Assembly (NCBI GenBank): GCA_964529035.1
Contig: CAZGUG010000002.1
Span: 19,241 to 83,240 of the forward strand
Reading direction: 5' to 3'
Origin: an uncultured Clostridium sp.
GTDB taxonomy: Bacteria > Bacillota > Clostridia > Ch29
DNA length: 64,000 nt
How positions within the stretch are numbered: position 1 is the first letter of the stretch; the number at the start of each line of letters is the position of its first letter. The notes under the pieces were generated by a model that was not told where the DNA came from, ran no database searches, and was given only the letters and a program-made list of their open reading frames with translations. A program made the translations under genes and the position numbers. Positions 1 to 33,765 of this stretch are shown here, piece after piece.

Positions 1-1485
1 ACTTTTACAGGTAATATAGGGCCAGATGTATGGGTTGATCACAGGAACTCTTCCTATGTTGACCAAAATGGAAGGGCTCTTTCCCTGGTAAACCGAGCCA
101 ATGAATCCATGGTTGGTGACAATGTGGTCAGCGGCAAAGTGGTGGCCTGGCCCATAGAGCGGCCTGAGCCGCAGATGTCAGATAATCCGCGGACTATTCA
201 TGTACCTGGCGATTATGCATCTATCCAGGCTGCTATCGATAGTTCAAAAAATGGAGATACCATCATTGTAGCGCCGGGAACTTACAATGAAAGCATTGAT
301 TTTCGGGGTAAGCATATCACTGTCAGGAGCCAGGATCCCCTGGATAAATCTATAGTATCGTCTACAGTGATTAATGGTGGTAATCCTGATGCACCTGATG
401 ATGGTCAGGGACCCATTGTTATGTTTTTGAACGGTGAAGGTCGAGATGCTGTTTTAGAAGGCTTTACCATCTACAACCGGGACAGAGACTTCTTCAACAT
501 GTCTGCTGTATACCTTTCAGGTGCTAGTCCCACTATCCGTAATAATATAATTACCAGTGAACGTGGAACCGGAATTTTAATGAACTGGGCCTATACAAAG
601 CTATACGTTCCAGAACAACAAGAAGACGAAGGTAGATTTACTCCACAGCTTGGCATGGAGACGGCACCTTTACTGGAGAATAATACAATCCGAGACTGTA
701 CCGTTGGTGGTGGAATGTGGTACTACTATGCATCACCAGAAATAATCGAGAACAAGTTTATCAATAACGATGGACCGTTGTCTGGAGCAGTACACAACTG
801 GTTCTCCAGTGCGACCATTAAAGACAATGAATTTGTTGGTAATAAAGGGCACAATGGAGGGGCTATACATTACGAAAACTATAGTGTGGTACTAATAGAA
901 GGAAACTCTTTTAAGGATAATGTTGTAAATGGTTTGGGTGGTGCAATTTATATTGACAGCAACACTTATGGGACAATTGACAGTAATGTGTTCATAGGCA
1001 ATCATGCCCAGAATGGAAGTGCTGTTGCCATTGGCCATGCTGATATAGAATTAACTAACAATGTGATTGCAGAAAATTACGGTTGGGCGTTGTTTGTAGG
1101 TGGAAAAGCCCGGGTAAACAACAACACCTTTGCTAATAATTACGGCGATACGCACGGTGAGGGGATATTTGTCATGGATGGTAAGGTTGAGGGAGTAAAT
1201 AATATCTTTTACAACAATGAACTGAATGTGTGGGAAGGCGAAGGTGGCGGAGAAATTAATCTTACCGATAGTCTGTTCTATAATAAAGATAGAAAATCAT
1301 GGCCGGGTAAAGGCAATCGATTGGCGGATCCATCTTTCATGGGTGAAGGTGACTACCGACTGCGATTCGGATCGAAGGCAATTGATGCTGGTGTTGAAGT
1401 TGATTTGAAAGTAGATATTATTGGAACTCCTAGACCCCAGGGACGGGGATATGACATTGGTGCTTATGAGTTTCTAGTGCCATAA
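1..1485 (+). CDS. Right-handed parallel beta-helix repeat protein (pectate-lyase/NosD-like fold), 5' end truncated by the window edge
   Basis: The frame stays open from position 1 with no stop upstream of the first ATG at 109. Repeated Gly/Asn-rich ~22-aa units (NNxI, GxxGxGI) are typical of beta-helix proteins. Stop codon at 1483-1485. Confidence 0.6.
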   Translation, partial: TFTGNIGPDVWVDHRNSSYVDQNGRALSLVNRANESMVGDNVVSGKVVAWPIERPEPQMSDNPRTIHVPGDYASIQAAIDSSKNGDTIIVAPGTYNESIDFRGKHITVRSQDPLDKSIVSSTVINGGNPDAPDDGQGPIVMFLNGEGRDAVLEGFTIYNRDRDFFNMSAVYLSGASPTIRNNIITSERGTGILMNWAYTKLYVPEQQEDEGRFTPQLGMETAPLLENNTIRDCTVGGGMWYYYASPEIIENKFINNDGPLSGAVHNWFSSATIKDNEFVGNKGHNGGAIHYENYSVVLIEGNSFKDNVVNGLGGAIYIDSNTYGTIDSNVFIGNHAQNGSAVAIGHADIELTNNVIAENYGWALFVGGKARVNNNTFANNYGDTHGEGIFVMDGKVEGVNNIFYNNELNVWEGEGGGEINLTDSLFYNKDRKSWPGKGNRLADPSFMGEGDYRLRFGSKAIDAGVEVDLKVDIIGTPRPQGRGYDIGAYEFLVP

Positions 1486-1612
1486 CCTGGAGAATAATTG
1501 GGTGTGTATTTGTATAGGCTGTAGGCCATAGAACAGGGGATGGTTCTCTGTTTGATAATGCCCCACCGGTATTACTATATATAACGTGATAAGGACTTTA
1601 CATCTTCTAGCG

Positions 1613-1639
1613 TGTCATCCTGAGCGAAGCGAAGGATCT
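1613..1639. repeat. 27-bp perfect inverted repeat, left copy (tgtcatcctgagcgaagcgaaggatct); partner at 3176-3202
   Basis: The reverse complement of 1613-1639 equals 3176-3202 exactly. The left copy carries an internal direct sub-repeat gcgaagcgaagga/gcgaagcgaaaga. Confidence 0.85.
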
Positions 1640-1809
1640 TGCGAAGCGAAAGATTTTTCGGAAGGCAAAATAAAGATTCTTCAGTCGTTCCTCCTTCAGG
1701 ATGACACATCTTATGTAACTTTATTAACACCTTATATATAGGTATACCCGTTAAAATAATGGATATATATGAAAGAGCAAAAAAAGAGATCCAAATATAA
1801 TACCGATAA

Positions 1810-1988
1810 AAAGGTAGTGGCAATGAAATCTCACTGCTCGACATACTGGGCACCGACTGTGATACGGCCTCTCCAACGGCACTATAAAGACCCAGCTGGA
1901 GATAGACCAGATGCTGGGCATTTCCAGGTCCTATGCTTCCAGGATTGAAAAGAGGGACATTAAAAAACTGAGCAGGGAAAACATATAG
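1810..1988 (+). pseudogene. sigK: sigK (sporulation sigma-K) 3' remnant: region-3/4-like fragments with a frameshift and a ~100-nt internal deletion
   Basis: Frame 1 (1810-1884) reads KGSGNEISLLDILGTDCDTASPTAL*, close to B. subtilis SigK ...KEGNEISLIDVLKSE. Frame 0 (1863-1988) reads YGLSNGTIKTQLEIDQMLGISRSYASRIEKRDIKKLSRENI*, matching SigK region 4.2 ([36 protein letters not shown]). The region 4.1 codons expected between the two fragments are missing. In-frame stop codons lie immediately 5' of nt 1810. Confidence 0.5.
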
Positions 1989-2016
1989 AACAGCTGTAAA
2001 GTAGCAGTTGTTCTAT
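1985..2016. terminator. Bidirectional hairpin terminator shared by the sigK remnant (+) and the EamA gene (-)
   Basis: The stem atagaacagctg / cagttgttctat has one mismatch around an 8-nt loop. T-rich tracts follow it on both strands. It overlaps both stop codons. Confidence 0.5.
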
Positions 2017-2933
2017 ATGTTTTCTGCGGAATTATCCTTGCTTTTGAGCATGTTTATTATGATTACCGCTATTATTATCATTGTGATGCCGAAAAACTGG
2101 AGTGGCGTCAGTATTTCTCTGAGAAGTATAACACCCAGGGCAACGCTTACCACCGGCTCGAAGGTACATAATATGGCGGCTCTTGAGGAGCTGGTTTCCC
2201 TTATTCCGGCAAAGAACAGCAGGTTTGACAAAAAGGTTGAAAAGATAGCGCTGGCCAGTATCGCTGCCCAGGCCTTTGGCGTCACGGACCACTGCAGGTT
2301 TCCGGTTACAAGGGCCGCAGCCATAAGTGTTACCGTGGCCGCAGTGGTGATGTATGTGGTGACGGTAAGAGAATCCATAGTACTAAGGTTTTCTGAGAAC
2401 CTGCTGCCCAGTAGTATTAGATGGGTGCTGAAGGAAAGGCACGCGCCGAAGGCCAGCAGAATGCCGAAGGTATTAAACTGTGAGACCGGCGACCATACCA
2501 TGAGGACACAGCCGACCGTTGCCATTATCAGTGCAAAGAGCTGCTTTGGGACCATTCTTTCCTTCAGTACTCTTACCATGAACAGGTTCACTATGACAGG
2601 GTACAGGTAAAAAATTACCGATGCGAGGGATACGGGAATATAGTTTATAGAATTGTAGTAAACAATAGAAAACCCCGCGTATACAATCCCTCCTATTATA
2701 AACAGAGTCTTGAGCTGTGCCCTGGAGGCATGTACTTTTTGCCGGCCTCCCGATGCAAGGCTGTATCCCCACAGGAGTGTCGATGCGATAAGGAACCTCA
2801 TGGCCAGTACAAACATGGGGTTTGCGCCTTCGTTGTAGGCCGTCTTGGATATTACCACGTTTATACCATAAAAAAAAGCCGCCAGTATAACAAGGGTGTT
2901 GCCCTTCTTTTTCATGTTGGCATTATCCTCCAT
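2013..2933 (-). CDS. EamA/DMT-superfamily transporter (10 transmembrane segments)
   Basis: 306 aa, highly hydrophobic. The two EamA half-domains are recognisable (N-terminal FFYGINVVISK..., second half AAILASAIFSTFLSNLLFFAGIRE). Confidence 0.75.
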   Translation of the reverse strand: MEDNANMKKKGNTLVILAAFFYGINVVISKTAYNEGANPMFVLAMRFLIASTLLWGYSLASGGRQKVHASRAQLKTLFIIGGIVYAGFSIVYYNSINYIPVSLASVIFYLYPVIVNLFMVRVLKERMVPKQLFALIMATVGCVLMVWSPVSQFNTFGILLAFGACLSFSTHLILLGSRFSENLSTMDSLTVTTYITTAATVTLMAAALVTGNLQWSVTPKAWAAILASAIFSTFLSNLLFFAGIRETSSSRAAILCTFEPVVSVALGVILLREILTPLQFFGITMIIIAVIIINMLKSKDNSAENI

Positions 2934-3175
2934 AACCGGTATTTGTCATCCATATCTATTCTACTACATCTGTATGTGTTTGTGGACTGCTTTTTTATTG
3001 ATCTGCCGGTTTAGGCAGAAGAACTGTGGGTCTAAACAAAAGACTTAACTTTAGCATATGATATATCGGGTAATGCCGCAGTATGCGGCGGCAGGTTAAT
3101 AAAACAGCTTATTATATAAGGGGACTGCTGAGAAAATAAGTTCTTTGCTTTTCATTTTGAAACGAAAAAGCTTAA

Positions 3176-3202
3176 AGATCCTTCGCTTCGCTCAGGATGA
3201 CA
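3176..3202. repeat. 27-bp perfect inverted repeat, right copy (agatccttcgcttcgctcaggatgaca)
   Basis: Exact reverse complement of 1613-1639. It is followed directly by a tandem array. Confidence 0.85.
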
Positions 3203-3243
3203 AGGAGGTTGCTCAGGATGACAAGGAGGTTGCTCAGGGTGAT
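3190..3243. repeat. Tandem direct repeat, 21-bp unit gctcaggatgacaaggaggtt, about 2.6 copies
   Basis: Copies at 3190-3210, 3211-3231 and a partial one at 3232-3243. This array generates the artefactual ORF 3197-3400 (MTRRLLRMTRRLLR...). Confidence 0.85.
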
Positions 3244-3278
3244 AAAAAGAGCTTTTTCAGTGGTTTTGGTTATAGGAG

Positions 3279-3770
3279 GTGATACTTTTGTACGGAAGGA
3301 AAAGTCAAAACGGGGCAGCGGCAGCCTATATAAGGGGTGGGCCTCTGGCGCCGCAGATAATGGGAGCTGTATACTTTCGGGACGTGGCCGGGGGCTGTGA
3401 AGTACGGGTAGAGGTAAACGGATTGCCTCCCTATCAGCCGGCTATAAAAGGTGAGGCTCCGATAGGGCCCCATGGTTTCCATATACATCAGTATGGAACA
3501 TGTGAAGTGGGTGACCCCGAGGACCCCTTTCAGGCGGCGGGAGGGCACTGGAACCCTGATAACCAGCCCCACGGTAATCATGCCGGAGATTTTCCGGTTT
3601 TATTTTCCAACAACGGCTATGCTAGGATGTGTTTTTTCACAAACCGGTTTAGGGCAAAGGAGGTAATCGGCCGCTCGGTAATAATACATCAGAACCCGGA
3701 TGATTACAGGACACAGCCCGCCGGAGACGCAGGAAGAAGGCTGGCCTGCGGGGTTATTCAGGCATATTAG
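3279..3770 (+). CDS. sodC: Cu/Zn superoxide dismutase (SodC family), apparently without a signal peptide
   Basis: All metal ligands are present: GFHIHQYG (Cu His pair), GGHWNP (bridging His), HGNHAGD (Zn His/His/Asp), IIHQNPDD (Cu His) and GDAGRRLACGVI (Arg/Cys). The start may be TTG 3288, downstream of AGGAGG at 3274-3279. No hydrophobic leader is present. Confidence 0.85.
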   Translation: MILLYGRKSQNGAAAAYIRGGPLAPQIMGAVYFRDVAGGCEVRVEVNGLPPYQPAIKGEAPIGPHGFHIHQYGTCEVGDPEDPFQAAGGHWNPDNQPHGNHAGDFPVLFSNNGYARMCFFTNRFRAKEVIGRSVIIHQNPDDYRTQPAGDAGRRLACGVIQAY

Positions 3771-3848: not shown

Positions 3849-4592
3849 ATGTCAGTAAGAAATATTGTCAAAATTAACGAGGAAAAATGCAACGGCTGCG
3901 GTCTGTGCATACCGAATTGTGCAGAAGGAGCCCTTCAGATAATTGACGGCAAGGCAGAGCTTGTCAGCGATAAGTACTGTGACGGACTTGGAGCCTGCTT
4001 GGGGACATGCCCGATGGATGCCATAGAGATTATAAAAAGGGAAGCGGACGATTTTGATGAGCAGACGGTTGAACAGTATCTTGAATCGAAACAAAATCAT
4101 GATAAAGAACCAAAGACCGGAGGCTGTCCCGGCAGCAGGATTGTGTCCCTGAAGGAAAGGGAAACGGCAGATTTTGAGCAGCAGCCGGAAGATATTGAAG
4201 TTTCGATACGTCCACAGTTGGCCCAGTGGCCGGTACAGTTAAAGCTTGTTCCGGTTCAGGCGCCGTATTTTAACGGCACTAATCTGCTGGTGACCGCCGA
4301 TTGTGTTCCCTTTGCCTACGCCGATTATCACCTTGGACTTTTGAAGGGTAAAAGTGTTGTGGTGGGATGTCCAAAGCTAGACGACAATAATTACTACACG
4401 GAAAAACTTACCGAAATAATAAAGAATAATGATATAAGAAAAGTCACTGTTGCATATATGGAAGTGCCGTGCTGCGGTGGTATTGTAAGGGCGGTGGATA
4501 CCGCAATAAAAAACTCGGGGAAAGATATTCCTATTGCACTTGTGGAAATTTGCATAGACGGACGAATAAAAGGAAAAATCGAAACAAAGTAA
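3849..4592 (+). CDS. 4Fe-4S dicluster (ferredoxin-type) domain protein with a Cys-rich C-terminal domain
   Basis: The N-terminus has CNGCGLCIPNC ... CDGLGACLGTCP, two CxxCxxCxxxCP-like motifs. The C-terminal domain carries GCPKL and VPCCGG cysteines. Confidence 0.55.
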   Translation: MSVRNIVKINEEKCNGCGLCIPNCAEGALQIIDGKAELVSDKYCDGLGACLGTCPMDAIEIIKREADDFDEQTVEQYLESKQNHDKEPKTGGCPGSRIVSLKERETADFEQQPEDIEVSIRPQLAQWPVQLKLVPVQAPYFNGTNLLVTADCVPFAYADYHLGLLKGKSVVVGCPKLDDNNYYTEKLTEIIKNNDIRKVTVAYMEVPCCGGIVRAVDTAIKNSGKDIPIALVEICIDGRIKGKIETK

Positions 4593-4722
4593 AAGGGCAA
4601 AATGGTGACTTGTTCCGCAAAAAATGATTCCTGTACCAAAGGGTATGGGGATCATTTTTGTCTGTCGATGTAGATTAAATTGTGATAATATAAAGTAGAA
4701 TATAGGCTTGGGAGGGAAACAG

Positions 4723-5262
4723 ATGTTGGAGTTATTTGTGCCGAACGAATACGTTGCGTCGGTATTCGATATCGACCTTGAATGTTTGAGCAAAAAGGGT
4801 ATAGACGCCCTAATAATAGATATTGACAACACGCTGGTTAGCTGGAAGACAAAGACCGCTGACAGGAAACTTTTGGAATGGTTCAAAGCTGTGGAAGATT
4901 TGGGCTTTAGGACGTGCCTGTTGTCCAATAATACGAAGGACAGAGTTGTGAAATTCACAGAAGAGACAAGGATACCGGCGGTATACAGGGCTGCAAAACC
5001 GGGTAAAGGCGCATTTCGCAGGGCAATGGCGCTTATGGGAAAACCCCGGTCTGCAACTGCGGTTGTTGGGGACCAGGTATTCACCGATATACTCGGTGGT
5101 AACAGGATGGGCCTGTATACTGTGCTTGTGCTGCCAATAAACGAGAGGGAGTTTTTTACTACAAGGCTTGTAAGAAGGCTGGAAAACAGAATACTTGAAA
5201 GGATGATTAAGCGCGGGGAATTAGTAAAGCCCTGCATAAATAATAGAAAATTGCGCAGGTAA
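4723..5262 (+). CDS. YqeG-family HAD-IIIA phosphatase
   Basis: HAD motif I is IIDIDNTL and motif III is VVGDQVFTDILGGNRMG, at YqeG-like length. RBS GGGAGGG at 4711-4717 precedes ATG 4723. Confidence 0.75.
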   Translation: MLELFVPNEYVASVFDIDLECLSKKGIDALIIDIDNTLVSWKTKTADRKLLEWFKAVEDLGFRTCLLSNNTKDRVVKFTEETRIPAVYRAAKPGKGAFRRAMALMGKPRSATAVVGDQVFTDILGGNRMGLYTVLVLPINEREFFTTRLVRRLENRILERMIKRGELVKPCINNRKLRR

Positions 5263-11937: not shown

Positions 11938-12405
11938 ATGAAGCATTTCAATAACAAGCAGGGCTTTTCCATAATTGAACTGCTCATGGCCCTTGGTTTG
12001 ACAGGAATTGTAATAGCCGCAGTTTTCATGGTCTATTATTCCGGAACAAAGGCGTGGAACAGGGCCGAAAACCAGGTTGAGGTTCAGCAGAACCTGAGGA
12101 TAGCAATGGATGTTTTAAGTACAGAGATAAGAAAGGCCGATTACTTTGAGATTCTGAAGAACCAGAGGGAGATTGTACTGGTATACGGTAATGGAAATAC
12201 AAAATCCTATAAATTCCACCCGGCTTCCGGCGAAATCAGGATTTCCCAAAGTAATGCAGCGGTGGCTATGCATATTGAGGATTTAAAGTTTTCATACCGA
12301 AACGGGCTTATTAAAATACATATAACAACAAAGGCAATGGAAGGTATAGGGCAAAAGGAGTATACCTTCAGCATTAATGCCAGGGGGAAGATACATGATG
12401 GTTAA
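11938..12405 (+). CDS. Minor pilin (PilW-like)
   Basis: MKHFNNKQG followed by FSIIELLMALGLTGIV. Confidence 0.6.
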   Translation: MKHFNNKQGFSIIELLMALGLTGIVIAAVFMVYYSGTKAWNRAENQVEVQQNLRIAMDVLSTEIRKADYFEILKNQREIVLVYGNGNTKSYKFHPASGEIRISQSNAAVAMHIEDLKFSYRNGLIKIHITTKAMEGIGQKEYTFSINARGKIHDG

Positions 12406-33133: not shown

Positions 33134-33162
33134 TTGAAGGTAGGATGCCGTCATGTTATAAT
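33134..33162 (+). promoter_or_regulatory. Consensus sigma-A promoter with extended -10 driving the non-coding region
   Basis: TTGAAG (33134-33139), a 17-nt spacer, then TGtTATAAT (33154-33162). Confidence 0.55.
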
Positions 33163-33169
33163 ATGTTCA

Positions 33170-33765
33170 TAGTTGGTGGTGCAGTATTCTAGTCAGACGT
33201 TTCGCTTCTGAAGGCGGGGCTAAAAATCCGTCAAAAGGCACATCGATGAAGTTCCTTGTGTTGGCTTCTGACGCCCAGTTGGGGGCTTTCTCAGGGAGTA
33301 AAGAGGTGGGGGCGATCTGCAACGGCATGCAGGCGTTGACCCTCCCTCTGCGGAGACCCGAAACCTGATATCAGGTTGGGTAAAAACCTGCAGATAAAAC
33401 CTGCAGCGTAGCCTGCCTTGAGTGAGATAGGCGGATGATTGTCAGGCTAATTCCGAAGGGCCCTTCGGAAGATGCCAATGCTTTCGAAACCTATTTTGCA
33501 AAAGAGGCTAAGAAACGGGACCGATGTCGAGGAAAACTCCTAGACTGTTCCAACGGAGGCATATTGGGGATTAGGGTGCGGACTAAGTGGTAATCCAGCC
33601 CTATCGATGGTAACACGATAGAGACGGGTTTAAAGGGAAACCGCTAACCTGGCGACAGGATAGTATCCGCCTGGGAAAGCCTGCTGGACCTAAGCCGCAA
33701 AATTTACTCATTATGCTGCCACCGCGAACTTTTGCTGATAGTTTATACTATCAGCTTTTTAATTG
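33170..33765 (+). ncRNA. ole: Candidate OLE (ornate large extremophilic) RNA
   Basis: A ~700-nt ORF-free, GC-balanced interval with many perfect local hairpins (aacctgatatcaggtt, ttccgaagggcccttcggaa, gctgatagt..actatcagc). It has its own promoter and terminator. Its position between ispA/PAP2 and a small four-TM membrane gene plus dxs-tlyA-nadK-argR-recN matches the published ole-oapA neighbourhood as I recall it. Confidence 0.7.

Follow-up and report, generated by a model that had tools for sequence, protein, structure and literature searches.

A perfect inverted repeat around an EamA transporter gene of an uncultured Clostridium, read as two insertions of one dispersed hairpin repeat

Does a perfect inverted repeat on the two sides of a transporter gene mark a segment that moves or inverts? 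The question was raised by a 64,000-nucleotide stretch of DNA from an uncultured Clostridium sp. (GenBank assembly GCA_964529035.1, contig CAZGUG010000002.1, positions 19,241 to 83,240 of the forward strand), referred to simply as the window. An initial annotation described inverted repeats that bracket a degraded sigK 3′ end and an EamA transporter gene, with a tandem array on the right arm. [quoted passage not shown] Our analysis led to a different answer, which we hold with good confidence: one dispersed, non-coding hairpin element has probably inserted twice, independently, and the copies lie in opposite orientation by chance in the intergenic regions on both sides of a native EamA gene. 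The bracketed DNA would then neither move nor invert as a unit.

A repeat search of the window showed that the inverted repeat is real. It was found at 1613-1640 and 3175-3202, with a length of 28 nt (one base longer than first described), 100% complementarity and 1534 nt between the arms. When the 64 kb were scanned with the 27-mer, allowing up to 3 mismatches, only the two arm sites appeared, the expectation from shuffles being 0.00. The 21-bp array on the right arm was likewise confirmed by Tandem Repeats Finder at 3190-3242 (period 21, 2.5 copies, 96% matches, unit GCTCAGGATGACAAGGAGGTT), and the related motif noticed earlier near the left arm could be placed at 1690-1706. The sequence TCAGGATGACA, with at most one mismatch, occurs at 6 sites in the window where 0.79 would be expected, and the arm locus accounts for 4 of them. 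Each array unit is a core arm cut down to its 5′ half, and these units follow one another in tandem 5′ of the full core. The features concerned are as follows.

1613..1640, forward strand: core arm of the left copy (type-1 arm), itself a small hairpin.
3175..3202, reverse strand: core arm of the right copy (repeat search, 27-mer scan and match to a hidden Markov model, HMM).
3190..3242, reverse strand: array of 2.5 units TGTCATCCTGAGC with the 8-nt spacer AACCTCCT (Tandem Repeats Finder).

No Pfam match was obtained for the spurious open reading frames (ORFs) crossing the repeats. In Rfam, nothing up to E=10 overlapped either element (1400-3400).

The core of the arm, the 25-mer GTCATCCTGAGCGAAGCGAAGGATC, was found in exact form in 24 viral contigs (IMG/VR) and in at least 120 genome contigs from about 12 phyla. 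The genome contigs belong to Acidobacteriota, Bacillota, Bacteroidota, Chlorobiales, Chloroflexota, Gemmatimonadota, Nitrospirota, Omnitrophota, Patescibacteria, Planctomycetota, Verrucomicrobiota, Bdellovibrionales, and Alpha-, Beta- and Gammaproteobacteria. The family counts used below (156 or 151 copies, 144 loci) are of copies among the matches listed. The full 28-mer of the window was present in 22 of the 156 copies with the exact 25-mer, and a T preceded the core in 79%. Since the 28-mer is the family consensus, two perfectly identical copies in one genome are to be expected. Copies occur as inverted doublets around a spacer (typically of 12-60 nt, among the pairs detectable by gap-free search), as single arms, and as arms preceded by truncated units. 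At many loci several copies lie 1-2 kb apart, with about one per intergenic region; hence, copies on both sides of one gene are unremarkable. It may be noted that the initial annotation had itself held a generic element, scattered over unrelated loci and invariant here, to speak against a special structure. The core is indeed generic at many unrelated loci, and no strain-to-strain variation was seen at this locus.

The arm folds into a hairpin with a 5-bp stem (A4-T24 to T8-A20), invariant tandem G·A pairs (G9·A19 and A10·G18) and, at the tip, a two-bp stem (G11-C17, C12-G16) with the loop G13-N14-A15. The 5′ GTC is unpaired, and the unpaired 5′ end, (T)GTCA, is nearly invariant across the arm variants. 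Among 92 variant arms from 1.09 Mb of fetched loci, pair 6/22 was CG in 44, TA in 28 and GC in 11, and pair 8/20 was TA in 73 and CG in 12. Curation left an alignment of 51 distinct variants, with pairing in 97.2% of the cells and compensatory double changes in 7 of 7 pairs. None of 500 shuffles reached the observed values, and slid registers fell to 23-50% paired. The curation dropped 10 of 61 distinct variants as partial or chance-like; the uncurated counts gave the same covariation.

In the loop, N14 was free and G13 and A15 were fixed. DNA of the form GCGNAGC, with any N, is an extraordinarily stable mini-hairpin (PMC13037366). The free N14 between the fixed G13 and A15 is the signature of this mini-hairpin. 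Mismatches of the G·T and A·C types were about equal in the arm (15 vs 11), so that a structure formed in RNA only is not favoured. We infer that the arm structure acts as single-stranded DNA.

To judge from sequence, the element around the left arm is an IS630-family MITE. Its parts are listed here.

1575..1741, forward strand: complete IS630-family MITE of 167 bp, with ends C-TA...TA-G, assigned from the HMM and full-length homologues.
1575..1603, forward strand: left terminal inverted repeat CTATATATAACGTGATAAGGACTTTACAT, with one mismatch to the family consensus.
1713..1741, reverse strand: right terminal inverted repeat of the MITE (repeat search, HMM).
1612..1707, forward strand: central hairpin module of the MITE, with a 12-bp terminal inverted repeat GTGTCATCCTGA / TCAGGATGACAC (repeat search and fold).
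1624..1657, forward strand: 17-nt internal tandem duplication GCGAAGCGAAGGATCTT / GCGAAGCGAAAGATTTT (repeat search).
1673..1707, reverse strand: degenerate type-2 partner arm AAGATTCTTCAGTCGTTCCTCCTTCAGGATGACAC, matching the partner arms of other members, e.g. gagattcttcggtcgcttcgctccctcagaatgaca of L016.

The HMM was built from 10 homologous copies on other contigs, the window copy being excluded. When it was run with nhmmer, 1575-1740 of the window matched model positions 1-150 of 151 (E=1e-33). Full-length homologues of 1575-1741 were found in L259 (83.5% over 170 nt) and L278 (82% over 172 nt), and L229, L242 and L216 showed 96-97% identity over the left terminal repeat and core. Further copies of the MITE were seen in L300 (at least 4), L215, L216, L229, L259, L260 and L278. 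The family was reached by a metagenome scan with the outer-repeat pattern followed by BLAST of the loci, the pattern alone being unspecific (at least 119 matches). BLAST of the left element against the PLSDB plasmids and the INPHARED phages gave no match. The 167 bp are non-coding and are crossed by spurious ORFs alone.

The terminal repeat CTATATATAACGTGATAAAGACTTTACA also bounds 1.2-kb elements in L261 and L319. The ORFs of these elements matched HTH_33 (E=3e-18) and DDE_3 (E=5e-37), which is the architecture of the IS630 family of insertion sequences (IS). The two IS (L261 2785-4021 and L319 4463-5662) have ORFs of 192 aa (HTH_33) and 162 aa (DDE_3), probably joined by frameshifting; 8 bp separate that of L261 from the solo right-end repeat of a different copy. 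The ends C-TA...TA-G were common to the window copy, both IS copies and the trimmed MITE copies, a few ends being degenerate. IS630 elements duplicate TA, often within a CTAG target. On the basis of these ends and this behaviour the MITE boundaries were drawn, and the ends are consistent with a TA duplication. The left copy would thus have entered a TA by cut-and-paste transposition, with the transposase supplied in trans. The IS is present in contigs Ga0334896 and Ga0334898, whose accession numbers adjoin that of the source contig, Ga0334897; these numbers suggest that the IS-bearing contigs and the source contig are of the same metagenome series.

Within the MITE, the 17-nt duplication appears to be inherited, because the MITE copies L278, L300a and L300d also have it. 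The partner arm at 1673-1707 includes the related motif of the initial annotation. The left module (1612-1707) folded at -39.4 kcal/mol (z = -3.9 vs shuffles), and is flanked by a 39-nt imperfect inverted repeat with a score of 42, which was matched by 0 of 3000 random positions. The MITE suggested at the outset is therefore present in part: the left arm lies inside a genuine one, but the arms do not form the two ends of a single element, and the right copy is without terminal repeats.

With the same HMM, the right copy was matched at window positions 3204-3129 against model positions 31-136 (E=1e-6). The match took in the core and a decayed partner arm, and the terminal repeats were uncovered.

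3148..3174, reverse strand: partner arm of the right module, shortened and decayed; its reverse complement is TAAGCTTTTTCGTTTCAAAATGAAAAG (nhmmer; weak alone).

The right module (3148-3243) lies in the divergent Sod_Cu-EamA intergenic region and gave no significant fold (z = 0.55). When the model was applied to the 144 pan-phylum loci, the parts that represent the terminal repeats were covered by 0 of 219 matches. Therefore, what is widespread is the hairpin module, and the terminal repeats are specific to a lineage. Of 73 doublets elsewhere, 8 were centred in other, unrelated long flank inverted repeats, vs about 1% expected. The module is either carried by different MITE families or prone to lie at the centres of palindromes.

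The DNA between the arms was then compared with that of relatives, whose EamA is 74-81% identical. The features in and beside the bracketed segment are as follows.

2013..2933, reverse strand: EamA/DMT transporter gene, native (gene calls; Sod_Cu-EamA adjacency kept in L155-L162).
1819..1988, forward strand: decayed sigK 3′ remnant (tblastn; in-frame stop codons).
1977..2024, no strand assigned: hairpin with a 20-bp stem between the convergent sigK remnant and EamA (repeat search).
3288..3770, forward strand: Cu/Zn superoxide dismutase gene (Sod_Cu), given for context (gene calls).

The relatives have pilus genes, a hydrolase, Fer4, Sod_Cu (reverse) and EamA (forward) in this order. In L157-L162, EamA is followed by an intact 231-aa sigK (reverse), and then by a penicillin-binding protein (PBP), a U32 peptidase, a methyltransferase and YceG. 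No core-like motif was found in the relatives' loci of 10-13 kb. As these repeat-free relatives keep the order Sod_Cu–EamA–sigK, the bracketed DNA is native. The Sod_Cu-EamA intergenic region measures 345 bp in the window vs 207-220 bp in the relatives.

When the relatives' intact 231-aa sigK was used in tblastn, only residues 142-157 (1819-1866) and 191-229 (1863-1979) were matched, residues 158-190 having no match in the window. With two blocks of residues recognizable and stop codons in frame, the degraded sigK 3′ end is real. Neither the window nor L001 has the PBP/transpeptidase–U32 peptidase–O-methyltransferase–YceG block. Because this block and the 5′ part of sigK are absent, synteny breaks between the MITE and about position 1800. 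The past rearrangement suspected in the initial annotation is thus borne out, sigK being truncated and synteny broken beside the MITE. What destroyed sigK was a separate rearrangement, with a breakpoint within about 30-60 bp of the MITE; from its position, it could be a recombination or deletion involving MITE or IS copies. No other copy of sigK occurs in the 64-kb window or L001. The hairpin at 1977-2024 is, by its position, likely to be a shared terminator, and the relatives also have short palindromic sequences in the same sigK-EamA intergenic region.

It may be asked whether the hairpins were domesticated as cis-acting RNA or DNA elements, as proposed for repetitive extragenic palindromes (REP), serving as a 3′-end stabiliser or terminator after the beta-helix gene and as an insulator between Sod_Cu and EamA. 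Such a role would be compatible with two independent insertions. The left module folds strongly and begins 127 nt past the upstream stop (stop at 1485, module from 1612), and the arm hairpin is kept by compensatory changes. However, the relatives do without the elements, the right copy does not fold significantly, no terminator-like site was found at the elements, and the orientation of the core relative to neighbouring genes showed no marked bias (37 vs 25). We regard domestication as improbable.

Alternatively, the rearrangement behind the truncation of sigK might have produced one copy from the other, for instance through fold-back or a template switch at a hairpin, and the arms would be true paralogues. 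The position of the left copy at the synteny breakpoint would agree with such an inverted duplication, and so would the left-right alignment, which runs beyond the core with a score of 37 (vs 23.3±4.4 for mononucleotide shuffles). When random window segments were taken for comparison, however, this similarity was not significant (110/1000 and 54/1000), and homology of the two copies beyond the core was rejected. Moreover, the left copy is a full-length family member with terminal repeats, whereas the right copy has none, and the 28-mer that they share is the family consensus. This origin is quite improbable.

The orientation of the segment was examined in other contigs. Both arms are spanned by seven distinct contigs from different samples (L001, L002, L006, L008, L163, L164 and L167), and the right arm is crossed by a further six. 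Every one of them showed the same orientation, was collinear with the window at 99.9-100% identity and had the same 2.5-unit array. The result bears on the invertible switch, in which the 28-bp repeats would be recombination sites and 1641-3174 would flip, altering the expression of EamA or Sod_Cu. Such a switch could make use of perfect inverted repeats 1.5 kb apart, of which the right one is in a divergent promoter region, and their 28 bp come close to the shortest length that homologous recombination requires. Besides the single orientation, several observations argue against it. No recombinase gene was called in L001 within about 10 kb on each side of EamA, the genes called being beta-helix/SLH, zinc-ribbon, several uncharacterised ones, EamA, Sod_Cu, Fer4, a HAD-type hydrolase and pilus/type II secretion system genes. 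The arms are the generic family consensus, the segment is a whole gene plus a pseudogene and not a promoter alone, and the relatives are without the repeats. The switch proposed initially is very unlikely.

Two contigs depart from the window at the core. L009 (1592-1706) leaves the window sequence exactly there and passes into high-GC DNA. L165 (1-2888) switches at the core to DNA of 56% GC, with HU, CSD, L-PSP and HerA, the window having 46% GC. L165 was considered as an alternative right-arm junction and rejected, its left part being foreign DNA of 56% GC, which indicates an assembly chimera. We take neither contig for a variant: in both, the assembly would have fused genomes of different community members at the repeat they share. 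The core is frequent enough in unrelated members of a community to produce such inter-genome chimeras in assemblies, as well as spurious small ORFs.

Differences in gene calls were noted among contigs of the same population. EamA was called as 306 aa in the window vs 300 aa in L163, L164, L167 and L168; L163, L164 and L168 are each 1-2 bases off the window over an alignment of 5-6.5 kb, and L167 is identical. The Fer4/AF_0155 gene (3849-4592, forward strand) is one ORF of 247 aa in the window and in several contigs, whereas others from this population have it called as two genes of 75 and 149 aa, a strain-level disruption (contigs compared: L001, L005, L163, L165 and L171).

A composite transposon or its scar, with two copies of one small element mobilising EamA as cargo, is most unlikely: the left copy is a real MITE and MITE-bounded composites appear to be known, e.g. 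the TIME-COMPs mentioned in PMC13367494, but the right copy is without terminal repeats, so that there are no two complete copies, no direct repeat flanks the whole unit, and the neighbours Sod_Cu and sigK are ancestral in the repeat-free relatives, so that the native segment was not brought in as cargo.

Several points weigh against the reading as two independent insertions. No empty site was recovered that would fix the MITE boundaries and the TA duplication; a viral scan with the 16-mer flank gave one related phage, L184, which has a different arm and is not an empty site. Neither a transposase nor further terminal repeats were found within the 64-kb window, and these 64 kb have two family sites only, so that dispersal of the repeat within the source genome is no more than presumptive. 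When ORFs within 2.5 kb of the 156 copies were clustered, no recurring protein family emerged. A tblastn search for a gene like the REP-associated tyrosine transposase (RAYT), a weak test made with approximate Y1 transposase queries, gave one IS200-like gene only. The right copy, which outside the core resembles the left one only marginally, might be a decayed MITE and not a bare module. Finally, assembled contigs show the majority orientation only, and could conceal a rare inversion.

GIY-YIG and RAYT were also considered as linked genes and found no support in these searches; the one IS200-like gene (in L059) has unrelated ends. This gene (4629-5081) has its own end hairpins, unrelated to the module. 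Beside it, at L059 4100-4400, is a tandem repeat of about 45 nt, which lies between two module copies.

By analogy with REP and their inverted doublets (REPIN), a bare module may spread as a single-stranded DNA hairpin handled by a trans-acting enzyme, or by hitch-hiking in lineage-specific MITEs. A bolder proposal can be offered tentatively, though we think it unlikely as a whole: that the hairpin module is a distinct, protein-less and apparently unnamed class of selfish DNA, which spreads as single-stranded DNA into hairpin tips or via a widely shared host or HUH enzyme, and which crosses phyla on MITEs and phages. If the module does have a spread of its own, it would be a miniature element of unusually broad host range and would show the ultra-stable GCGNAGC DNA mini-hairpin under selection in nature. 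Literature searches with the motif, its reverse complement and the spurious peptides matched no relevant paper, and keywords reached only papers on REP/REPIN and MITEs.

Arrays of half-units like that of the right copy were seen across the family. One to three extra units, GTCATCCTGA(GC) plus 6-12 nt, were present in 20 of 151 copies, compared with 2 in a control window 330-400 nt upstream. The extra units have the same orientation as the full core and stand directly 5′ of it, with a period of 19-25 (mode 20), and the unit boundary is the start or end of the mini-hairpin. In two related phage contigs the units were kept, the spacers differed, and the flanks were about 90% identical. The L300 MITE copies, all of one contig and one family, differed in having zero, one or three extra units. 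Such arrays of truncated units, which are frequent in the family and change quickly, may result from slippage of replication at the mini-hairpin, which is very stable.

Two other sites with arrays deserve mention. At a phage intergenic site shared by L016 (about 11990-12160), L034 (reverse strand) and L184 (4470-4770), the arrays differ between flanks that are about 90% identical. L184 has there a different superfamily arm (GTCATTGCGAG...), and the site looks like a hot spot of repeat turnover. In Hymenobacter piscis (L103 5986-6087), a module doublet has on each side 58-nt inverted arrays of GGTGAGA-like heptamers.

Apart from the repeats, the window contains at 33160-33738 (forward strand) a full-length gene for the ornate large extremophilic (OLE) RNA, which scored 501 bits against RF01071 and was the only Rfam family to reach its gathering score in the window. 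This RNA has been described chiefly in Firmicutes that are anaerobic and often extremophilic, a host range that fits the name 'Clostridiales bacterium' borne by relatives.

For the locus itself, the result removes a false lead, there being on this reading no phase-variable switch and no mobile EamA cassette. What remains is a pair of repeat insertions, together with an old rearrangement by which the site lost its sigK. The hairpin-module family is a moderate curiosity; the EamA locus is ordinary.

It remains to compare these elements with known systems. Switches of the fimS and hin type are invertible promoter switches, and the locus resembles them in having short inverted repeats around a segment beside a promoter region. 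It differs from them in its generic arms, in a single orientation, in a segment of 1.5 kb that contains a gene, and in that no recombinase was called within about 10 kb.

IS630-family MITEs, of which RUP of Streptococcus pneumoniae is an example, are a second known system. Like them, the left element is small (167 bp) and non-coding, has terminal repeats of about 29 nt that match those of an autonomous IS with HTH and DDE_3 domains, shows the C-TA...TA-G ends expected for a CTAG target, and has several copies on other contigs. Unlike them, its interior is the hairpin module and not a deletion derivative of the IS, and the module is also found in many phyla without these terminal repeats. The copy number of arms and half-units also varies between the MITE copies here.

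A MITE with an internal minisatellite has been described in Porphyromonas gingivalis (PMC4596501). As far as that description goes, and by likeness of description, not of sequence, it too appears to be a small element bounded by terminal repeats with a variable tandem array. It belongs to another organism, however, and the array units here are truncated copies of a hairpin arm.

In its build the arm recalls REP/REPIN-RAYT systems and clusters of bacterial interspersed mosaic elements (BIME). It is an imperfect palindrome, short and extragenic, whose 5′ tag is unpaired and whose hairpin is kept by compensatory changes; it is found alone, in clusters, and as inverted pairs that enclose a short spacer. 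The tags of REP are GTAG or CGTC (PMC3733652), whereas that of the module is GTCA. No RAYT gene was found near the copies with the approximate queries of our weak test. Unlike REP, moreover, the module is not lineage-specific, the same 25-mer being present in about 12 phyla and in phages, and its family is typified by half-units that stand in tandem in the same orientation.

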